Below are positions 9,085 to 46,981 of a stretch of 64,000 bases of DNA, in pieces; positions within the stretch are counted from its first letter, which is position 1, and every line of letters begins with the position of its first letter. The position numbers and the translations under genes were made by a program. The notes below the pieces were generated by a model. The model had not been told where the DNA came from. It did no database searches and saw nothing but the letters and a program-made list of their open reading frames with translations. This stretch comes from Pseudomonadales bacterium (lineage in GTDB: Bacteria; Patescibacteriota; Microgenomatia; UBA1400; PJMF01): the NCBI GenBank assembly GCA_020632255.1, contig JACKFX010000001.1, positions 58,734 through 122,733 on the forward strand. The letters run 5' to 3'.

Positions 9085-9157
9085 AGCGGGAAACGGGGCT
9101 CGAACCCGCGACCTTCTCCTTGGCAAGGAGACACTCTAGCCACTGAGCTATTCCCGC
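9085..9157 (-). tRNA. tRNA-Gly(GCC)
   Basis: Reverse complement folds as a cloverleaf: acceptor GCGGGAA/TTCCCGC, anticodon loop TTGCCAA, T-loop TTCGAGC, discriminator U. Confidence 0.85.
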
Positions 9158-10855: not shown

Positions 10856-10928
10856 TGCCAAGCTGAGGAGTCGAACCTCAATCTCATGTTTTTCAGACAT
10901 GCGCCGTGACCACCTTGGCTAGCTTGGC
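10856..10928 (-). tRNA. tRNA-Phe(GAA)
   Basis: Acceptor GCCAAGC/GCTTGGC, anticodon stem catgt/acatg with loop CTGAAAA, T-arm GAGGTTCGACTCCTC. Confidence 0.8.
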
Positions 10929-10948
10929 TTAAGCATAACGAGCGAGTG

Positions 10949-11021
10949 TGGAATGTAAGGGACTCGAACCCCTGACCCTTCGGATGTAAGCCGAATGCTC
11001 TACCAACTGAGCTAACATTCC
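10949..11021 (-). tRNA. tRNA-Val(TAC)
   Basis: Acceptor GGAATGT/ACATTCC, D-arm GCTCAGTTGGTAGAGC, anticodon loop CTTACAT, T-arm AGGGGTTCGAGTCCCTT. Confidence 0.85.
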
Positions 11022-11055
11022 ACTTGTTGTTTTATGGTTTCAACCACAAACACTG

Positions 11056-11136
11056 TGCCCAGGAGAGGACTTGAACCTCCACACCTTTCGGCATACGCAC
11101 CTCAAGCGTACGTGTATACCATTTCACCACCTGGGC
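11056..11136 (-). tRNA. tRNA-Leu(GAG)
   Basis: Acceptor GCCCAGG/CCTGGGC, anticodon loop CTTGAGG, long variable arm, T-arm GGAGGTTCAAGTCCTCTC. Confidence 0.85.
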
Positions 11137-11283
11137 ATGTAATGTGTATGAGTCACAGCTAACGCGACTCAAGGCATACATTATAAAATATAATCCCTCT
11201 TTGGGGAAGTAGTATCTGGTGGGCATCTTCTCAAGATATGCTCATCATTAGTTCACTTCCTTATTGGAACTATGCAAACTCTG

Positions 11284-11367
11284 TGCCAGAGAAGGGAGTC
11301 GAACCCTTACGCCCGTAATGAACACTAGTTCCTGAAACTAGCCTGTCTACCATTCCAGCACTCTGGC
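11284..11367 (-). tRNA. tRNA-Leu(CAG)
   Basis: Acceptor GCCAGAG/CTCTGGC, anticodon stem ctagt/actag with loop TTCAGGA, long variable arm. Confidence 0.85.
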
Positions 11368-11449: not shown

Positions 11450-12142
11450 TTATGTTTTGACTGAGTGTTTAAATTTTTGGAAAAAGGCTTCGATAATGAT
11501 GTCTCTGGCTTGATCAAAGTGACAGTATGTTGTGTTGATGGTCAAGTCGTACGAGTTGACTTTCTTGGGGTCTTTTTTAAAGTATTGTTTGACAAACTCG
11601 TTGCGTTCTTTTTCTACTTTGGCTATGATTTCCCTTGCTTTGGCCATGTTATGACCTTCGTAGTCGATAGCTCTCTGGACACGGATGTTGTACGGTGCAG
11701 TAATATTGACATGAAGTCCTTTAGCGAATGGGGTGATGAAGTTAGCTCCTCTTCCCAAAATGACGCATTTGCCTTTATAGGCATATGCCAGTACAACTTT
11801 GATGAGTTCGGTGATGTAGGCAGAATCATCAATGTATTCTGCATTCAAAACTGAATGAACCACATCCTCGATTTTTGTACGATGTTTCTCGTCGATCGCT
11901 TTGATGATGGCTTTGCGTTTTTTTGTAGATCGTGCGATTTCATCAATGATTTGTTCGTCTACAAACTCAAAGCCTAGCTTTTCCGCAATTGCTTCTGCAA
12001 TTGGGGCTCCCCCACTGCCGGGCTCACGAGCAATGGTGATAAAGGGGCGAGTGAAAGAATTTTCAGCTTGAACGGTAATGTCTTCTTTCAAGTTGAAAAA
12101 CGTTAAAGCTTTGTTGATCAGGGGATAGTATCGTGTATACAT
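11450..12142 (-). CDS. cytidylate kinase-like family protein (P-loop-like ITIAREPGSGG)
   Basis: N-terminal ITIAREPGSGG and the overall length match the cytidylate kinase-like family (Cytidylate_kin2). Confidence 0.5.
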   Translation of the reverse strand: MYTRYYPLINKALTFFNLKEDITVQAENSFTRPFITIAREPGSGGAPIAEAIAEKLGFEFVDEQIIDEIARSTKKRKAIIKAIDEKHRTKIEDVVHSVLNAEYIDDSAYITELIKVVLAYAYKGKCVILGRGANFITPFAKGLHVNITAPYNIRVQRAIDYEGHNMAKAREIIAKVEKERNEFVKQYFKKDPKKVNSYDLTINTTYCHFDQARDIIIEAFFQKFKHSVKT

Positions 12143-12262: not shown

Positions 12263-12336
12263 GCACCAGTAGCTCAGCTGGATAGAGCACCGGTCTTCGG
12301 AACCGGGTGTCGGGGGTTCGAATCCCTCCTGGTGCA
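12263..12336 (+). tRNA. tRNA-Arg(TCG)
   Basis: Acceptor GCACCAG/CTGGTGC, D-arm GCTCAGCTGGATAGAGC, anticodon loop CTTCGGA, T-arm GGGGGTTCGAATCCCTC. Confidence 0.85.
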
Positions 12337-33204: not shown

Positions 33205-34752
33205 TTACTTGTTCTTCAAATCAAGCTCACGGTTAATAGTTCCCATGACTTGTGGACCGTTAAACACCATGCCAGTAATCATTTGAAGTAAGTCTGCCCC
33301 GGCATCAAGTTTTGCTTGTGCAGTAGCGGTGTCAAAAATGCCTCCACAGCCAATGATAGTAAAGCGATCATAGAAGTTATCTCGAGTTAGTTTGATCAAA
33401 GCATTTGAGCGTGCAAAAGTTGGTCGGCCACTGAGGTTTCCTTTACGCGACTTCCAAACTTTTCTGTCTTCTGGTGTAACAGCAGGATTATTCTTATCCT
33501 TTGTCAGGTTCCCAAAAATGACACCTTGCACATTGTGTTCATCAGCAACCGCTAGCAATTGTAGGGTTTCTTTTTCAGACTGATCAATTGGCATCTTGAT
33601 GTACAAAGGTTTACTCAGTTGGAGTGAATCGGTGACAGTCAGTAGTTGTTCTAATCGTGCTGATGAAGTAAAAGGTTCACCCCCAAAGGTGTTTGGACAG
33701 CTAATGTTTAATTCATAGTAGCTATGGTTAACGTGAGATTTTTCAAACACTAAAAAACCTTTGACGATATCCATAATTTGTTCTTGGTCGCTGTCAAAGT
33801 GAGCGTTAGTTGAAGCAATACTAATACCCACAGGAACGGTGAATTGAACACCTGTAAGTCTGCGAGCAACTTCTTTAGCCCCCAATGTTTTGAGCCCTTT
33901 GTTTACAATCAGAGCCTTTGAGTTGGGTAAACGACCCAAACGGGGTTTAGGGTTACCCTCATATGGTTGGTAGGTAACAGTACCAATTGTGTGCCACCCA
34001 AAACCGACGGGTCCTAAAATGCGTGCCATTTCGCCGTTATAGTCGAAGCCAGCACACAGGCCCATCTTATTTGGGAACAGAATTCCATCCTTCACAACTG
34101 CAGTTGTAGCTGAGTTGTAAGAAAAAACGATTGATGTTAACCAACGTGTGATAGCAAAACTTCCGAGTAATTTTCCAAAAAAAGTAAATTGATTATGGAC
34201 AGCTTCTGGGTCAACTAAAAAAAGAATTCTTTTTAGAATATTTTGATATAAAAATCCAATAGTTTTTTGACTCACAGCTTTTAGCAAGGAATGGGGACTA
34301 TTCTGAGTCATTCTAAAGTATTTCCAAGAAACGAAAAAAAGTGTTGCGCTTGTTACTGCTGAAATCAGGCAATACAAACACCAACCCTTAATGAGAACGG
34401 CCATGATAAAGACTAAATACATGGAGAACAAGAGTCCGAATGAAGTGATCAAGGTGTAGAGCTGTTGTGTAGAGGTATATGCTCGCAGTTTTTTTGGCAT
34501 CCATTTGGAGACATCAATTTCGAGCAGCAGTAAACTACCTAAAATAAGTAGTGTCGCATAATACAATAATCCTAATATTGAGACAGGTATTGGTCCAATA
34601 TGTGAGTACTTACTCAGTAGCACTGCTCCACAATCAAAGCCTGTTCCACAGGGTGGAATGATTCCCTGCATTTCCTCGAAGGTAATGTATCCTGCATCAG
34701 TAAGTCCAATGAGTGGAAGTGCAACATGCAGAAGAAGGAGAAAGAGTTTCAT
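33205..34752 (-). CDS. fusion protein: N-terminal VKOR (vitamin K epoxide reductase)-like membrane domain + C-terminal class-2 dihydroorotate dehydrogenase
   Basis: N-terminal 170 aa: loop Cys pair PPCGTGFDCG (Cx5C), SKYSHIGPIPVSILGLLYY, and a TM CXXC (GWCLYCL). C-terminal: GLCAGFDYNGE, NISCPNT, IIGCGGIFDTATAQAKLDAGADLLQMITGMVFNGPQV (PyrD). Confidence 0.6.
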   Translation of the reverse strand: MKLFLLLLHVALPLIGLTDAGYITFEEMQGIIPPCGTGFDCGAVLLSKYSHIGPIPVSILGLLYYATLLILGSLLLLEIDVSKWMPKKLRAYTSTQQLYTLITSFGLLFSMYLVFIMAVLIKGWCLYCLISAVTSATLFFVSWKYFRMTQNSPHSLLKAVSQKTIGFLYQNILKRILFLVDPEAVHNQFTFFGKLLGSFAITRWLTSIVFSYNSATTAVVKDGILFPNKMGLCAGFDYNGEMARILGPVGFGWHTIGTVTYQPYEGNPKPRLGRLPNSKALIVNKGLKTLGAKEVARRLTGVQFTVPVGISIASTNAHFDSDQEQIMDIVKGFLVFEKSHVNHSYYELNISCPNTFGGEPFTSSARLEQLLTVTDSLQLSKPLYIKMPIDQSEKETLQLLAVADEHNVQGVIFGNLTKDKNNPAVTPEDRKVWKSRKGNLSGRPTFARSNALIKLTRDNFYDRFTIIGCGGIFDTATAQAKLDAGADLLQMITGMVFNGPQVMGTINRELDLKNK

Positions 34753-34782: not shown

Positions 34783-35532
34783 TCAAGATTGCTTTTGGTA
34801 TTTTAGAGGTGTGACAATGTAGTAAGAATTGACACTTTCTTCTTTGCCATCGGCGCGGTAGGTGCTTATTTGTGAGAGGTTGGTTGCGTGCAAAAGCTTG
34901 GCAACTTCTCCGGGGGTGAAGTAATGACAGTACCGAATCGCCAAGGGACCTCTTTGCCAGTCTAAAAAGTAATCTTCATCTTCGAGTTCGTGTGTTCGGA
35001 TGTTAATTTCATGTGGATTGATTGTTTTTTTCCTAAGTCTCTCAAACTCCATAAATTGCCAAGTTGTGAAAACCAAAGTTCCGCTTTCTGTTAACAGTGA
35101 TGAAGCAGCTTTTATAAGTTGAGCACGTAGTTCGAAACTCGGAATGTGATGCATAACGCCGAAAATAGCAATCAGATTAAACTTTTGATCGGTCGGTACA
35201 AGAGGTGAACCACTTAAAAAGTTAGAAACGATATCGTTTTTTAAAAAGTCTCCTGAAGGATTTGCTGTTTTGGCTGCATCGAGTAACTGCTGGTTACTAT
35301 CAATACCGGTGTAGTTTGCTAAATTATGAAAATGCTCTGTGGCAAACGATCCAAATCTGCCGTTGCCACACCCAATATCTAGAACTGATGAAATTTTTTC
35401 TGCATCAATATGCTCAAGCAGCTTAATCCACCCTGGCCAGTAGTGGTTTCGACTGTTATCAAAGTCTGAAGCTACAGTTGTGTAAAATTCTGAGTTGAGT
35501 TTATTAAGTTGTGCGATGGTACTTTTTTGCAT
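34783..35532 (-). CDS. class I SAM-dependent methyltransferase
   Basis: VLDIGCGNGRF motif I. Confidence 0.6.
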   Translation of the reverse strand: MQKSTIAQLNKLNSEFYTTVASDFDNSRNHYWPGWIKLLEHIDAEKISSVLDIGCGNGRFGSFATEHFHNLANYTGIDSNQQLLDAAKTANPSGDFLKNDIVSNFLSGSPLVPTDQKFNLIAIFGVMHHIPSFELRAQLIKAASSLLTESGTLVFTTWQFMEFERLRKKTINPHEINIRTHELEDEDYFLDWQRGPLAIRYCHYFTPGEVAKLLHATNLSQISTYRADGKEESVNSYYIVTPLKYQKQS

Positions 35533-35590: not shown

Positions 35591-37441
35591 ATGTATCAGT
35601 TCAACCCAGAAGACTATTCAGATCAATTGGTACCCCTGCTCAAAAAGCTCGAAACGTACAAAACGCTAAGCCCCAAAGAGTTGGCGCGATTGGTAAAGAA
35701 ACACACCAAAACAAATGGTGATGTGTTGTCGAAGGACGAAATTATCCGTGGGTATCGACACTTTGCTGGGACACATGGACTAGCTCCATTTTCTGAAAGA
35801 GTTGTGAAGTTGGTAGCGATGAAGCCGATTCGCACTCAATCTGGTGTTTCGCCGGTTACCGTGCTTACAAAGCCGTTCCCCTGCCCTGGTCAGTGCATTT
35901 TTTGTCCCAATGATGTGAGGATGCCGAAGAGTTATTTGGCGGATGAGCCCGGCGCGCAGCGTGCCGAGCGAAATTGGTTCGATCCCTACCTTCAGACATA
36001 CAACCGTCTGCAAGCTCTCCACAACATTGGGCACACAGTTTCAAAAACAGAAATCATTGTCTTGGGAGGCACATGGTCTTTTTATCCTGAAGCGTATCAG
36101 ATTTGGTTCATCAAAGAATGTTTTCGGGCGCTCAATGATTTCGGAACACATGATGGTCGCGATCAGGTTTTGAGATGGTACGAAAATATGTCCACAGAGC
36201 TCAAGAAAAAAAATATCCAAAGAACTTCGGAACCAGAAACAAACAAGCGATCACTTGCTGATCACCAAATCGATGGTGAAGCCATGAAGAAAACATACAA
36301 CCGTGTTATCTCTGAACAGTACACTGCTCCAGAAAAATTGGGTGGCTTTGATGGTTACCAAACTGCAACATGGGAAGAGTTGGAAGCTGCTCAAAAAGAA
36401 AATGAAACTGCTGCTGTTCGCTGTGTGGGGTTGGTTATTGAAACTCGACCTGACAATATTTCAGAAGCAGAAGTCATCAGGGTTCGGAGACTTGGATGTA
36501 CCAAGACACAAATCGGAGTACAGTCTTTGCAAGACGAAGTGCTTGATAAAAACAAGCGAGGTCACAACGTAGCCGCTACTCGTAAAGCATTCAAATTACT
36601 GCGCCAAGCAGGTTTTAAAGTACATGCGCACTGGATGGCAAACTTGTATGGATCTGATGTTGAAAAGGACAAGCAGGATTTTGAAGGCTTATTTTCAGAT
36701 CCTGATTTTCATCCTGATGAGCTTAAAGTGTATCCTTGCAGTTTGATTGGCAGTGCAGAACTCATGCAGTACTACAAAGCTGGCAAGTGGCACCCCTACT
36801 CTCGTGAAGAATTAGCTGAAGTGTTGGCTCATGTTTTTAAGGCGACTCCAGAATATTGTCGTCTTACTCGTGTGATTCGAGATATTCCTTCAACCGACAT
36901 TGTTGAAGGCAATAAACTTACTAACTTCCGACAAATTGTTGAAAAGAAACTCAAAGATGAGGGTGTGGTTGTTACAGATATTCGTGCTCGAGAAATTAAA
37001 AATGGCACGTTTGATCCTAAAGATATTGAGTTCAAAGTGATTCAGTACGAAACTTCTGTGAGTACAGAATATTTCTTGCAATATGTGGTTCCCGAAAAAA
37101 AAGTGCGTTTTGTCCAGAAACGTCAGCAACATACAGACGATATTATTTTAGGCTTTTTACGACTTTCAATTCCCAAAGAGAAAAATTTTATTGAAGAACT
37201 CACAGATGCGGCGATTGTTCGTGAAGTCCATGTGTATGGAAGTGTGGTGGCAGTTGGTAAAGATAGCAGTAGTAAGCCTCAGCACTTGGGTTTGGGTAAA
37301 AAATTATTAGATGAAGCTACCAGAATTTCGACACAGAATGGTTTTAAAAAGTTAGCGGTTATTTCTGGAATTGGAACTCGAGAGTACTACCGTATGCGTG
37401 GATTCAAAGACGGAAACCTTTATCAAGTGAAAGATATGTAG
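35591..37441 (+). CDS. ELP3-family radical SAM / GNAT protein (tRNA wobble-uridine modification, Elongator subunit 3 homolog)
   Basis: Radical-SAM cluster FPCPGQCIFCPND, an ELP3-type central domain and a C-terminal GNAT (HLGLGKKLLDEA). Confidence 0.7.
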   Translation: MYQFNPEDYSDQLVPLLKKLETYKTLSPKELARLVKKHTKTNGDVLSKDEIIRGYRHFAGTHGLAPFSERVVKLVAMKPIRTQSGVSPVTVLTKPFPCPGQCIFCPNDVRMPKSYLADEPGAQRAERNWFDPYLQTYNRLQALHNIGHTVSKTEIIVLGGTWSFYPEAYQIWFIKECFRALNDFGTHDGRDQVLRWYENMSTELKKKNIQRTSEPETNKRSLADHQIDGEAMKKTYNRVISEQYTAPEKLGGFDGYQTATWEELEAAQKENETAAVRCVGLVIETRPDNISEAEVIRVRRLGCTKTQIGVQSLQDEVLDKNKRGHNVAATRKAFKLLRQAGFKVHAHWMANLYGSDVEKDKQDFEGLFSDPDFHPDELKVYPCSLIGSAELMQYYKAGKWHPYSREELAEVLAHVFKATPEYCRLTRVIRDIPSTDIVEGNKLTNFRQIVEKKLKDEGVVVTDIRAREIKNGTFDPKDIEFKVIQYETSVSTEYFLQYVVPEKKVRFVQKRQQHTDDIILGFLRLSIPKEKNFIEELTDAAIVREVHVYGSVVAVGKDSSSKPQHLGLGKKLLDEATRISTQNGFKKLAVISGIGTREYYRMRGFKDGNLYQVKDM

Positions 37442-37449
37442 TTGAGTGA

Positions 37450-37779
37450 CTACTCGTCCATACCAAAACGGTCACGGGTGAAGTTAATTTTGCGTTGCAT
37501 GACTTCTTTGACGTCGATATCAAGCTCAATACCAAGCAGAATTAATGAGCCAAGAACATCGGCAAATTCATCTTCAACATTTTCTTTGCTGAATTTTTCA
37601 ATTTTTGTGTTTCTTTGCAGGTTCATTGATGTCAAGATTTCATCAGAAAGTTCACCAAGTTCTTCCATGATTTTCATTGTGCGTGCAAAGGTGCGTTGCT
37701 CATGATTTTTTAGGGGCCAGCGAGTGTTTAAGAAACTGCTGATTTCTGCATATTGTTTTACGAGTGAGTCTATAGTCAT
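37450..37779 (-). CDS. MazG-like NTP pyrophosphohydrolase domain protein
   Basis: IMEELGELSDEIL…EFADVLGSLILLGIELDIDV EEXX(E/D) helical pair. Confidence 0.45.
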   Translation of the reverse strand: MTIDSLVKQYAEISSFLNTRWPLKNHEQRTFARTMKIMEELGELSDEILTSMNLQRNTKIEKFSKENVEDEFADVLGSLILLGIELDIDVKEVMQRKINFTRDRFGMDE

Positions 37780-41012: not shown

Positions 41013-41990
41013 TTATTGGTTCAAGATCTTGATGAAATGGTCTTTGATTTTTTCGGTTACTTCAATTTCAACCCCACCTACTCCAGGCTGGCCATAATAG
41101 ACAAAGCTTCCAAGCGGTGCAGATAAAACAGCAGGAATGGCTAAGAGATCTTCTTCTCCATCTACCTGAATGTGACCATCTTTTTGATCGGTACAGAATT
41201 GGGATATTACTCTTGAGGCTTCCGATGAAATAGAGCCAGCAGGATTTGAAACGTTAGCAGAAACAGAAAGTGCATTAATAATATTTGAGTGATACGTTTC
41301 TCTTTCACAAATGCCGTCAAAAATACCCAGGTTATATTCCCATTCAAATGAGTTAAAGCGTTCGAGGGTTGAGTCGCCAACAACTATTTTATAGCTCGGT
41401 CTTGAATCAGGTTGGTTGACAATTTTTCCTTGCAGCTTAGAGAGTGCTTTTCGTTGTGGTTCAGAAAGAGTGATTGTATTTGCGAGTGCTGCGCTGTACA
41501 CAAATCCGCCTCGAGAAATCTCTCCAGCTCTGATTCGATCTGAATGAATTGGCTGACCATCTTCTGCTGGTACCATATTCACAATATGGACTGGAAGTGA
41601 TTTGAGTCCGAGTTGTTCACGCACCACGTTAATTTTATCTGCACCCGCAGCAGTTTCAGTCGTTACAAAGAGCGCATCTTGTTTGATATCTGGATCTATG
41701 GTTGGCCCATAGATGTCGTGAAGTTCAACGAGTTCAATAGAGTATCCTTGTTTTTTACAGTAATTACCCACACTTCGAAATCTAACCTTAAGCGGTTCAA
41801 TACTGAAGCGATACTTTTTGTTATGAAGCAATTTTTTTGAGCTTACCCCGATGATAAGTCGCTGGCCCATGTTGGCAGCGGCATCAATGAAGGCCTTGTG
41901 GCCATCATGGAAATGGTCAAATGTGCCACCTAAAACAACGGTAATGTATTTTTTTCGATTTTTCATAGTCTGCTGAAGTTTCAACACCAC
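41013..41990 (-). CDS. fusion of archaeal-type phosphopantetheine adenylyltransferase (cytidylyltransferase-like GGTFDHFHDGH) with a DUF359 GTP-dependent dephospho-CoA kinase-like domain
   Basis: N-terminus VVLGGTFDHFHDGHKAF. C-terminus VVGDSTLERF…GIFDG…VDGEEDLLAIPAVLSAPLGSFVYYGQPGVG matches the DUF359 hallmarks (GEEDL, YGQP). Confidence 0.55.
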   Translation of the reverse strand: MVLKLQQTMKNRKKYITVVLGGTFDHFHDGHKAFIDAAANMGQRLIIGVSSKKLLHNKKYRFSIEPLKVRFRSVGNYCKKQGYSIELVELHDIYGPTIDPDIKQDALFVTTETAAGADKINVVREQLGLKSLPVHIVNMVPAEDGQPIHSDRIRAGEISRGGFVYSAALANTITLSEPQRKALSKLQGKIVNQPDSRPSYKIVVGDSTLERFNSFEWEYNLGIFDGICERETYHSNIINALSVSANVSNPAGSISSEASRVISQFCTDQKDGHIQVDGEEDLLAIPAVLSAPLGSFVYYGQPGVGGVEIEVTEKIKDHFIKILNQ

Positions 41991-42111
41991 ATATTATACC
42001 TCGAAAAGGCATAAAAAAAACTCCCGGGGGTGGGAGTGGAAAAAGGGGGGGCCGCAGTCTATTAAGACTTTGGCCCCGATCAGATTAGATCGTTTTACCC
42101 TTTTTGTAATT

Positions 42112-42420
42112 CTAGCTGATGTCATTCAAGACTGCGGCATTTTCGGCCAGCTCAGCTTTCGCAGCTTCCACTTCAGCCTCAGCTTCTTTCAGCTCGGCTT
42201 TCAGTGCTGTGACGCGGGCTTCTGCTTTTTCCAAACGGCCGGTAGCGGCTTCAACAGCCGCCTGTACGGCGCTACGGATGTCTTCGATGGTCTTGTCGGT
42301 GGCGGTTGCAACCACAGATAACATCGATTTGATCTGGCGGTTGAATTTCGTCGTCAGACGATTTTCCAGTTCTGCCATTTCGTTTTCATGCGTTTCGCGT
42401 TTAATCCAGGGAAAGTTCAT
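42112..42420 (-). CDS. coiled-coil protein in a GC-rich islet, unknown
   Basis: A/E/K heptad-rich sequence. Local GC is about 52% against ~38% for the surroundings. Confidence 0.35.
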   Translation of the reverse strand: MNFPWIKRETHENEMAELENRLTTKFNRQIKSMLSVVATATDKTIEDIRSAVQAAVEAATGRLEKAEARVTALKAELKEAEAEVEAAKAELAENAAVLNDIS

Positions 42421-42644
42421 TTGCTTGCTCCTATAGGAAAAAATTGGTCCGTACGGGACAGGGTTAAAACAATCTGTTAAAGGTTGTGTTGCCGCTTTTC
42501 AGGGCCGAGAGCCTATTAAGGTCAGCCATAAGCGGACAACAATAGCAATTAATGTCAATAGTTAAAACTATTATGATATAATTACCCATCTTTAACAATC
42601 CCACTAGGTCAAGTCTTTACCTTGACACCCACAGGAGAGTTTGT

Positions 42645-45579: not shown

Positions 45580-45897
45580 CTAAAATAAGCACTTACTCAA
45601 ATCAACTTTATTTTTTTTGAAGATGACGCCCTCAGCCCGAAGTTTTTGTTCTTGTACTTTGGCTCCACCAAAGGCGTACCCTGGAGCCAGTCTGCCATCA
45701 CTAAAAACAACTCGATGACAAGGAAACTGTGAGCTGTCAGGGTTTTGGTGTAAAATTTTACCAACTAACCGGGGAGTGGATAAAAACAGGTCTCTGGCAA
45801 TTTGGCCATAGGTTGTGACTTTTCCCTTGGGAATGGTTGTTAGATACTCAAAGACGTCGGGCGCAAACTTTTTGAGTGCAGATGGTTCATTTTGCAT
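45580..45897 (-). CDS. methylated-DNA–protein-cysteine methyltransferase (MGMT/Ogt C-terminal domain only)
   Basis: PCHRVV active-site motif and TYGQIA. Start taken at the internal Met (MQNEPSAL). Confidence 0.6.
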   Translation of the reverse strand: MQNEPSALKKFAPDVFEYLTTIPKGKVTTYGQIARDLFLSTPRLVGKILHQNPDSSQFPCHRVVFSDGRLAPGYAFGGAKVQEQKLRAEGVIFKKNKVDLSKCLF

Positions 45898-46981
45898 GAG
45901 ATTTGTTTGTAAGGTTCGTATGTAAATATAGTAGGTGTACAAAAATACCAAGGATTAGAAACAGCTCTGTTAGCTCCTCCCAAGATTTGAAGCGCCATGG
46001 GCCATGAATTTTTCTAAGCCATAAGTATAACAGGATGAAACTAAAGTTAAAAAAGAGATGGGCACCCGGAATTACAATTTTTTTCCAAGTCTGAATACTT
46101 TTGATCTTTGGTACGAGATCTTTTAGGAGCCACTCAACTACCCAAAGAAATGCTCCGTATACTCCAATCGCGGTGTAGCCAACATAGACAAATGGCCAAA
46201 ATGTTTCTGAGTTATGAATGTTGATCTCATCTTGATGATTTTGATCAGCGATGTGATCGGGTGTTTCAATGTTGAAAATACGTTGACCCCATGAAATTTC
46301 TTCAAGAGCAACCAATGTGAGCGCAACACCAACTGCAATGCAGCCAAGTTTATAGACTAGCTGGTGGTATTTATTTGCAAAAAGTTTCTTTCTGCTTAGG
46401 TTGAACGAGATTAACCCACTGACAAAAAACAGAAGAGCTGTTGCCATTTCAACAAGGCCATCCTCAACGATAAGATCTGAGTACTCAAATGGATGCATCA
46501 AATAATAGAGCCCAAAAGTGACAATAGACAATAGCGTTCCAGTTGCAAAAAGAGTTTGCCAATTATTTTTAAGAAATGATGGTGGAAGGTGAAGTAGACC
46601 AAACAATAATCCAGGAAAACTAAGTAATAGAATTGCTTCAAAATTGATTTTATAGATTTCTAAAAAGTAGTTTAGAAAAAGTCTCCCCTCCTCTAATAGC
46701 AGTACGATTACTGTGAGCAGAATACTCGTTGGGAGCAAAATAAATAGATTTCCAAATGAGAATTCTTGGGAGAAGCGGTGTTCTCTTTTGGTAGCGAAAA
46801 AGAGTGCTGCATGCAAGCCAAATAAGGCAAGTATTACTAATTTTGCAGACAGTCCGGTGTTGTTTAGAATGCTATCGTGGTAGGTCAAAAACTCAACTAA
46901 GACTACGAGAAGAGAAGCTACATACAAAACCTTCAGAAGTGTTTTTGCTGCAACTTTGTTTAAGGGTTTCTGTTGGAACAT
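45887..46981 (-). CDS. polytopic membrane protein, unknown
   Basis: About 10 predicted TM helices. Confidence 0.45.
   Translation of the reverse strand: MFQQKPLNKVAAKTLLKVLYVASLLVVLVEFLTYHDSILNNTGLSAKLVILALFGLHAALFFATKREHRFSQEFSFGNLFILLPTSILLTVIVLLLEEGRLFLNYFLEIYKINFEAILLLSFPGLLFGLLHLPPSFLKNNWQTLFATGTLLSIVTFGLYYLMHPFEYSDLIVEDGLVEMATALLFFVSGLISFNLSRKKLFANKYHQLVYKLGCIAVGVALTLVALEEISWGQRIFNIETPDHIADQNHQDEINIHNSETFWPFVYVGYTAIGVYGAFLWVVEWLLKDLVPKIKSIQTWKKIVIPGAHLFFNFSFILLYLWLRKIHGPWRFKSWEELTELFLILGIFVHLLYLHTNLTNKSHAK

Follow-up and report, generated by a model that had tools for sequence, protein, structure and literature searches.

The 64,000-nucleotide stretch of DNA analysed here (henceforth referred to as the window; part of contig JACKFX010000001.1) contains an uninterrupted open reading frame (ORF) on its minus strand at positions 41013 to 41990, and we conclude that this ORF very probably encodes a bifunctional coenzyme A (CoA) synthase of archaeal-type parts in a Microgenomates-type host of the Candidate Phyla Radiation (CPR), likely finishing a scavenged CoA precursor. 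An earlier reading of the letters alone (henceforth the sequence-only reading), which named no strand, had proposed that the ORF, which amounts to 325 amino acids (aa) in the ORF list if read from a GTG codon, joins an archaeal-type phosphopantetheine adenylyltransferase (PPAT) to a DUF359 dephospho-CoA kinase (DPCK). This proposal is supported by profile hidden Markov models (HMMs), matches to solved structures, a high-confidence structure model and the conservation of catalytic residues.

The four motifs that the sequence-only reading had relied upon (GGTFDHFHDGH, VVGD, GEEDL and YGQP) are all present in the translation, and the HMM searches that it had suggested placed both Pfam domains above their curated thresholds: PF01467 matched aa 19-155 with 50.4 bits (cutoff 21) and PF04019 (DUF359), the family of which the latter three motifs had been called hallmarks, matched aa 220-324 with 89.7 bits (gathering threshold 25; E=1.5e-25). 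The view that the N-terminal motif is archaeal-PPAT-like rather than CoaD-like was likewise borne out, as NF001985 (archaeal-type PPAT; PRK00777, COG1019, EC 2.7.7.3) matched aa 13-164 over model positions 2-152 of 157 with 134.3 bits against a cutoff of 104 (E=3.8e-39), whereas the bacterial CoaD model TIGR01510 reached 15.5 bits against a cutoff of 103.3. The remaining nucleotidyltransferase models of NCBIfam scored 26 bits or less, and no CoaE model, PF01121 included, matched the fusion protein in the Pfam and NCBIfam scans. A search of the PDB sequences returned matches to the Archaeoglobus fulgidus PPAT 3do8 (E=1.4e-24, aa 10-155) and the Thermococcus kodakarensis GTP-dependent DPCK 8jvc (E=4.7e-14, aa 194-315), and no others. 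The sequence-only reading had further called CoaD and CoaE, the bacterial proteins for the same two reactions, unrelated to these domains; this holds for CoaE, which is not homologous to DUF359, but is too strong for CoaD, since CoaD shares PF01467 and the nucleotidyltransferase fold with archaeal PPAT (Foldseek E ~1e-4, TM ~0.6).

The features assigned to the gene and to the DNA upstream of it are the following:

41013 to 41966, minus strand: bifunctional PPAT/DPCK coding sequence, 317 aa and stop codon, identical to NCBI MCB9800651.1; the maximal ORF reaches the GTG at 41990
41502 to 41966, minus strand: N-terminal archaeal/eukaryotic-type PPAT, aa 1 to ~155, with GGTFDHFHDGH (HxGH) and IHSDRIRAGEI
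41016 to 41501, minus strand: C-terminal complete DUF359/arCOG04076 DPCK, aa ~156-317, with D198, D217 and D273
41993 to 41998, minus strand: candidate -10 hexamer TATAAT, 26 nt upstream of the ATG at 41966, a perfect consensus match read from the sequence
42020 to 42037, minus strand: terminator-like GC hairpin with T-run, a consensus match and the single match of the terminator scan in the scanned region

An alignment of 118 homologues (36-66% identical to the window protein) was used for an AlphaFold2 model, which had a mean pLDDT of 95.8 and a pTM of 0.91. When this model was compared with the PDB by Foldseek, 8jvc, 8jvg and 8jvf ranked top and 3do8 next, and the folds of a solved archaeal PPAT and of a whole solved DPCK were both matched. 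As the DPCK alignment takes in 167 columns of the 172-residue chain, the apparent 'linker' at aa ~156-195 is the N-terminal part of a complete DPCK; as modelled, the protein is a PPAT plus a DPCK with nothing left over. In a HMMER alignment counted by hand, D198, D217 and D273 (numbered on the 317-aa protein) correspond to D48, D67 and D125 of the T. kodakarensis kinase TK1697, in which function in vivo is impaired by the substitutions D48A and D67A and, to a lesser degree, by D125A (Shimosaka et al., PMC6650551). In 3do8, the aligned counterparts of the N-terminal motifs GGTFDHFHDGH and IHSDRIRAGEI are GGTFEPLHEGH and ISSTRIKRGEI. Thirty positions, with all catalytic motifs among them, are invariant across the 118 homologues: they include the three aspartates, G13, G14, F16, D17, H18, H20, G22 and H23 of the HxGH motif, R146, G270-E271-E272 and Y291-G292-Q293-P294, and such invariance at 36-66% identity points to strong purifying selection. 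The HxGH and xGD motifs are also found in all of the 80 related loci described below, the distant Levybacteria and Roizmanbacteria relatives included.

The fusion gene and its flanking DNA

The coding sequence most likely comprises positions 41013-41966 and starts at the ATG rather than at the GTG, because TATAAT (41998-41993) immediately precedes the GTG of the maximal ORF, the NCBI protein has 317 aa and the alignment of the 118 homologues starts at the equivalent of this ATG. Upstream, the terminator-like hairpin (42037-42020) marks the end of a small coiled-coil ORF (42112-42420) and sets the PPAT/DPCK gene apart; downstream, 18 bp separate the stop codon from a gene for RarA/MgsA, after which come Tag and RecQ, so that the fusion gene probably heads a transcription unit made up otherwise of DNA repair genes. 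Six assembled Logan contigs contain the identical ORF flanked by the same genes (the four places shown come from four different SRA runs), and the ORF is therefore no assembly chimera; the GC content shows no break at the fusion gene. The upstream ORF, also on the minus strand, codes for 102 aa of alanine- and glutamate-rich coiled coil with a weak FliJ-like match as its sole Pfam hit; it sits in locally GC-rich DNA (42000-42450 of the window) and is kept in the identical Logan contigs.

Host and distribution

At NCBI, the exact protein carries the accession MCB9800651.1 and the label 'Pseudomonadales bacterium', and its named close homologues come from Woesebacteria and Pacebacteria. When one genome of each GTDB species was scanned for the peptide pattern GGTFDHFH, at least 239 species genomes proved to encode a relative of the fusion; the best of these relatives is just 47% identical to the window protein and the window species is therefore not among the GTDB representatives. 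Locus comparisons were made with the 80 best relatives of the 239, which are assigned to Woese-, Pace-, Levy-, Roizman-, Cerri- or Yanofskybacteria or to the 'Patescibacteria group', with many third-party annotation (TPA) assemblies labelled otherwise. The gene order fusion, RarA, RecQ, ELP3-like, methyltransferase and VKOR-DHODH (vitamin K epoxide reductase joined to dihydroorotate dehydrogenase) is common to the oddly labelled contigs, the named CPR contigs and the window, and the fusion adjoins RarA in 28 of the 37 loci that contain RarA. This synteny with named Pacebacteria, Woesebacteria and Levybacteria genomes identifies the window as part of a Microgenomates-type Patescibacteria genome, as the sequence-only reading had guessed in mentioning CPR, and labels such as 'Pseudomonadales' on contigs of this kind are evidently unreliable and look wrong. 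The gene context (RarA, Tag, RecQ and LytR_cpsA_psr, in a locus syntenic with Patescibacteria metagenome-assembled genomes (MAGs)) is likewise bacterial, and the host is not an archaeon. Many of the TPA labels among the 80 read 'uncultured Pseudomonadales' or 'uncultured Gammaproteobacteria' and a few 'Methylococcaceae', 'Limisphaerales' or 'Vitreimonas'; the oddly labelled loci include L001, L006, L010, L011, L012, L018, L029 and L033.

Both domains reside in one ORF in 116 of the 120 homologues listed (two fragments were set aside) and in each of the 80 related loci. Database entries for hundreds of CPR proteins already bear both Pfam domains, and the NCBI product name for such proteins is 'pantetheine-phosphate adenylyltransferase' alone, which leaves the kinase step under-annotated. 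Overall, the fusion family appears to be the standard enzyme for the last two steps of CoA synthesis in the Microgenomates-type group.

Search for other CoA genes

The window has 52 ORFs that reach 120 aa, and in the 50 that were scanned with Pfam (the two excluded, 11465-11854 and 45580-45951, overlap longer ORFs) no CoaE, second PF01467 protein, CoaBC or PanK was found. Similarly, tblastn searches with E. coli CoaE, CoaD and Dfp found nothing, either in the window or across the ~1.2 Mb of the 80 related loci, the sole weak matches being to the PPAT domain of the fusion itself. The absence of coaD and coaE, which the sequence-only reading had proposed to look for, thus holds in the window and the related loci and is not established genome-wide. 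Levybacteria loci contain a second cytidylyltransferase, which was weighed as a possible CoaD and rejected, since it is RfaE-domain-II-like. This protein of ~160 aa (L039:5611-6078, and the equivalent site in ~20 Levybacteria-type loci) has the motif GGCFDILHxGH, is encoded four genes upstream on the opposite strand and resembles RfaE domain II or heptose-1-phosphate adenylyltransferase, with 110 bits, under the cutoff, for TIGR02199.

The conserved neighbours of the fusion in the 80 loci are RarA, RecQ, ELP3-like, MazG-like and MutY-like genes and, in Levybacteria, VanW, SBP, TsaD, DUF192 and GreA; no CoA-related neighbour (transporter, kinase or CoaBC) was found among them. Users of CoA are encoded in the window, namely four GNAT acetyltransferases and one ELP3-like radical-SAM enzyme, ELP3 enzymes being users of acetyl-CoA.

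Related fusions and phylogeny

When representatives clustered at 50% identity were searched at full sensitivity with an archaeal PPAT (P0122), 150 proteins were listed, 15 of which also carry the DPCK domain, and a search with a fragment of the A. fulgidus PPAT returned standalone PPATs of Archaeoglobales and no fusions. Two representatives with the order PPAT then DPCK, P0391 (near trigger factor) and P0383 (near GreA, TsaD and VanW), are bacterial by their neighbours; for a third, P0342, the neighbours (glycosyltransferase and DsbA-like genes) left the host undecided. The reverse order, DPCK then PPAT, was found in P0357 (L087:8001-8957, 318 aa), which is archaeal judging by its neighbours (ribosomal proteins S24e, S27e and L37e, an eIF-5A homologue, LSM and CarS), and this reversal indicates that PPAT and DPCK were fused in at least two independent events.

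The sequence-only reading had also called for a phylogeny of each half. In neighbour-joining trees (200-500 bootstraps) that comprised 45 CPR proteins, with 40 standalone archaeal DPCKs added, the DPCK halves of the CPR proteins formed one clade in the point tree (bootstrap 50/500). The PPAT halves did not do so, with 36 of the 45 in the best clade, and an Asgard-containing group appeared as sister with a bootstrap of 7/500. Given this weak tree support we claim no donor; the lateral acquisition that the sequence-only reading had raised may apply, as may shared ancestry. The identity of the window protein to its CPR relatives (33-77% for PPAT, 25-58% for DPCK) overlaps with that to archaea (22-43% and 22-38%, respectively), and the family is therefore old within CPR.

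In four Roizmanbacteria-type genomes the ORF extends to 501-516 aa and contains an additional N-terminal archaeal/NadM-type nicotinamide mononucleotide (NMN) adenylyltransferase (NMNAT) domain with the motif GRFQPFHxGH. This domain scored 124-132 bits for NF002243 (cutoff 127) and 109-116 bits for TIGR01527, and a representative of 507 aa, P0307, has the same layout. Such a triple fusion would finish both NAD and CoA. The NMNAT-PPAT-DPCK ORFs are:

L069:8723-10273
L071:7424-8944
L073:1878-3413
L076:3478-4983

About 35 of the 150 PPAT representatives have 300-350 aa and consist of a PPAT with an NTPase-like C-terminal domain, of the PRK01170 'PPAT/NTP phosphatase' type. Their consensus is ...GVGIEAGL...GxLS...R..., and P0256, P0269, P0278, P0279, P0283, P0373 and P0378 are among them (alignment A2). 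The NTPase-like domain looks like a common alternative partner of PPAT and is presumably archaeal.

Other features of the window

The ELP3-like protein of the window (35591-37441, plus strand) has 616 aa with Radical_SAM and Radical_SAM_C domains and keeps its synteny with the fusion across 28 related loci, with identities reaching 64%; its gene adjoins a MazG-like ORF of 109 aa (37450-37779) and a class I methyltransferase (34783-35532). An ORF of 515 aa at 33205-34752 (minus strand) joins a VKOR membrane domain to dihydroorotate dehydrogenase, an unusual fusion that is kept in ~15 related CPR loci at 54-56% identity. An integrated mobile element may have its edge at positions 1-2733 of the window, where a partial tRNA (1-76) precedes a minus-strand tyrosine recombinase/integrase (234-1046), an ORF resembling an ADP-ribosyltransferase exoenzyme (1326-1892) and an HNH endonuclease (2215-2733). 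Four tRNA genes lie within ~500 bp on the minus strand at 10856-11367, with further tRNAs at 9085-9157 and 12263-12336, and the whole window has 11 tRNA matches.

Discussion

On the evidence of its domains, the protein is expected to carry out two consecutive reactions. The N-domain would convert 4'-phosphopantetheine and ATP to dephospho-CoA and PPi, and the DUF359 domain would then use a nucleoside triphosphate, probably GTP by analogy with TK1697, to phosphorylate the 3'-OH of dephospho-CoA, yielding CoA. That two consecutive steps are fused, and that the model places the two domains relative to each other with confidence (pTM 0.91), suggests that dephospho-CoA may be channelled from one domain to the other. 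The substrate would most likely be scavenged, either as 4'-phosphopantetheine or as pantetheine that is then phosphorylated, since genomes of this type generally lack cofactor pathways; in one metagenome study, the Patescibacteria were described as lacking such pathways but making acetyl-CoA with pyruvate:ferredoxin oxidoreductase (PMC7426153). The resulting CoA would supply the many acetyl-CoA-dependent enzymes encoded nearby.

Several observations weigh against this interpretation. The Thermococcales equivalog models fell far short of their cutoffs (NF041124 for PPAT, 77.6 against 290 bits; NF041125 for DPCK, 71.6 against 300 bits), and we therefore claim no equivalog-level orthology. GEED[LE] is present in 75 and YGQP in 63 of the 80 related loci, neither being strictly kept in the distant Levybacteria and Roizmanbacteria relatives. 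The gene neighbourhood is one of DNA repair and lends no support from the pathway, the absence of upstream CoA steps and of coaD and coaE covers 64 kb and the flanks of related loci rather than a genome, and the enzyme activities of all bacterial members are predictions.

The two folds could, in principle, serve other substrates, with the N-domain acting as a nucleotidyltransferase for NMN, FMN or a sugar phosphate and the DUF359 domain phosphorylating or pyrophosphorylating some other metabolite. PF01467 covers a wide superfamily and the models for RfaE, NMNAT and FAD synthetase matched weakly, DUF359 is distantly related to thiamine pyrophosphokinases (PMC6650551), and the extra NMNAT domain of the Roizmanbacteria fusion demonstrates that cofactor nucleotidyltransferases do mix in this family; we nevertheless consider such a change of substrate unlikely. 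Slightly less likely still is that the fusion is a redundant or relic copy, dispensable or drifted to a regulatory role, in a cell that has canonical CoaD and CoaE elsewhere. The canonical genes could lie outside the 64 kb examined, which are part of a contig of at least 262 kb, and some Levybacteria loci do contain a second small cytidylyltransferase near the fusion; however, the latter is RfaE-domain-II-like and not a CoaD, no CoaD or CoaE was detected in the ~1.2 Mb of related loci, the family is present in at least 239 species genomes, and the 30 invariant positions speak for strong purifying selection.

It is very improbable that archaeal DNA was mis-binned or chimerically assembled into a bacterial contig, even though the closest characterised relatives of both halves are archaeal and the Pseudomonadales label of the MAG is evidently unreliable. 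The close spacing to RarA/MgsA and the Tag-RecQ run that follows, together with LytR_cpsA_psr elsewhere in the window, are at odds with such an origin, as are the adjacency to RarA in independent Pacebacteria, Woesebacteria and Patescibacteria MAGs, the recovery of an identical locus from several runs with unbroken GC content at the gene, and the trigger factor, GreA and TsaD genes that adjoin other PPAT-then-DPCK representatives.

With a bifunctional CoA synthase as our preferred interpretation, a more far-reaching scenario can be put forward tentatively, and we rate it as plausible but somewhat short of probable. Microgenomates-type CPR bacteria would lack coaD, coaE, coaBC and pantothenate kinase and would obtain all of their CoA through this single archaeal-type, probably GTP-using fusion, with 4'-phosphopantetheine salvaged from hosts or neighbours as the starting material; the module would have been gained once, anciently, from archaea or be a shared relic, and the Roizmanbacteria version would have been extended to an NMNAT-PPAT-DPCK protein that finishes NAD and CoA.

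The architecture itself is already known. Fusions of PPAT with arCOG04076 in uncultured archaea provided the clue from which the archaeal DPCK was discovered in 2019 (PMC6650551), and a CoA role for DUF359 had been predicted earlier from domain fusions by Makarova et al. (PMC6393860). These archaeal fusions have the same two domain families in one chain and the same inferred consecutive reactions as the window protein but reside in archaeal hosts rather than in Patescibacteria, and the sole archaeal fusion that we placed in its genomic context, P0357, has the opposite domain order. TK1697 (PDB 8jvc; EC 2.7.1.237) is a standalone GTP-dependent enzyme of 177 aa, whereas the DPCK of the window is fused and its donor is predicted. 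Archaeal PPATs (3do8, TK2128, COG1019/NF001985) share the HxGH and ISxxRI(R/K)xGEI motifs and the fold with the N-domain, to which they are 32-37% identical by structural alignment (related archaeal PPATs, ~41% over gap-trimmed columns), but are usually standalone (~150 aa) or fused to an NTPase domain (PRK01170 type). Eukaryotic COASY resembles the window protein in having PPAT then DPCK in one chain, with a PPAT of the same non-CoaD subfamily (PMC6650551); its kinase, however, is of the ATP-using, CoaE-type P-loop class and has no homology to DUF359. Our literature searches found no account of the CPR fusion, of CoA synthesis in CPR or of the 8jvc structure. The window protein is thus a bacterial (CPR) member of a known archaeal-type PPAT/DPCK family that is widespread, domain-annotated and apparently undiscussed in the literature.

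What sets the window protein apart is its bacterial host and not the architecture. In the 2019 work, PSI-BLAST retrieved only members of arCOG04076, 'present in nearly all archaea' (PMC6650551), and the picture of the archaeal DPCK as an archaea-specific analogue of CoaE is qualified by its systematic presence in a large bacterial radiation. The fusion adds to the archaeal-like housekeeping modules of CPR bacteria. Because NCBI names these proteins as PPAT alone, pathway reconstructions based on CoaE wrongly score the last step of CoA synthesis as missing. If the fusion is the sole CoA gene of its hosts, 4'-phosphopantetheine or pantetheine would be a metabolite that these episymbionts must obtain from their partners, which would be useful for their cultivation.
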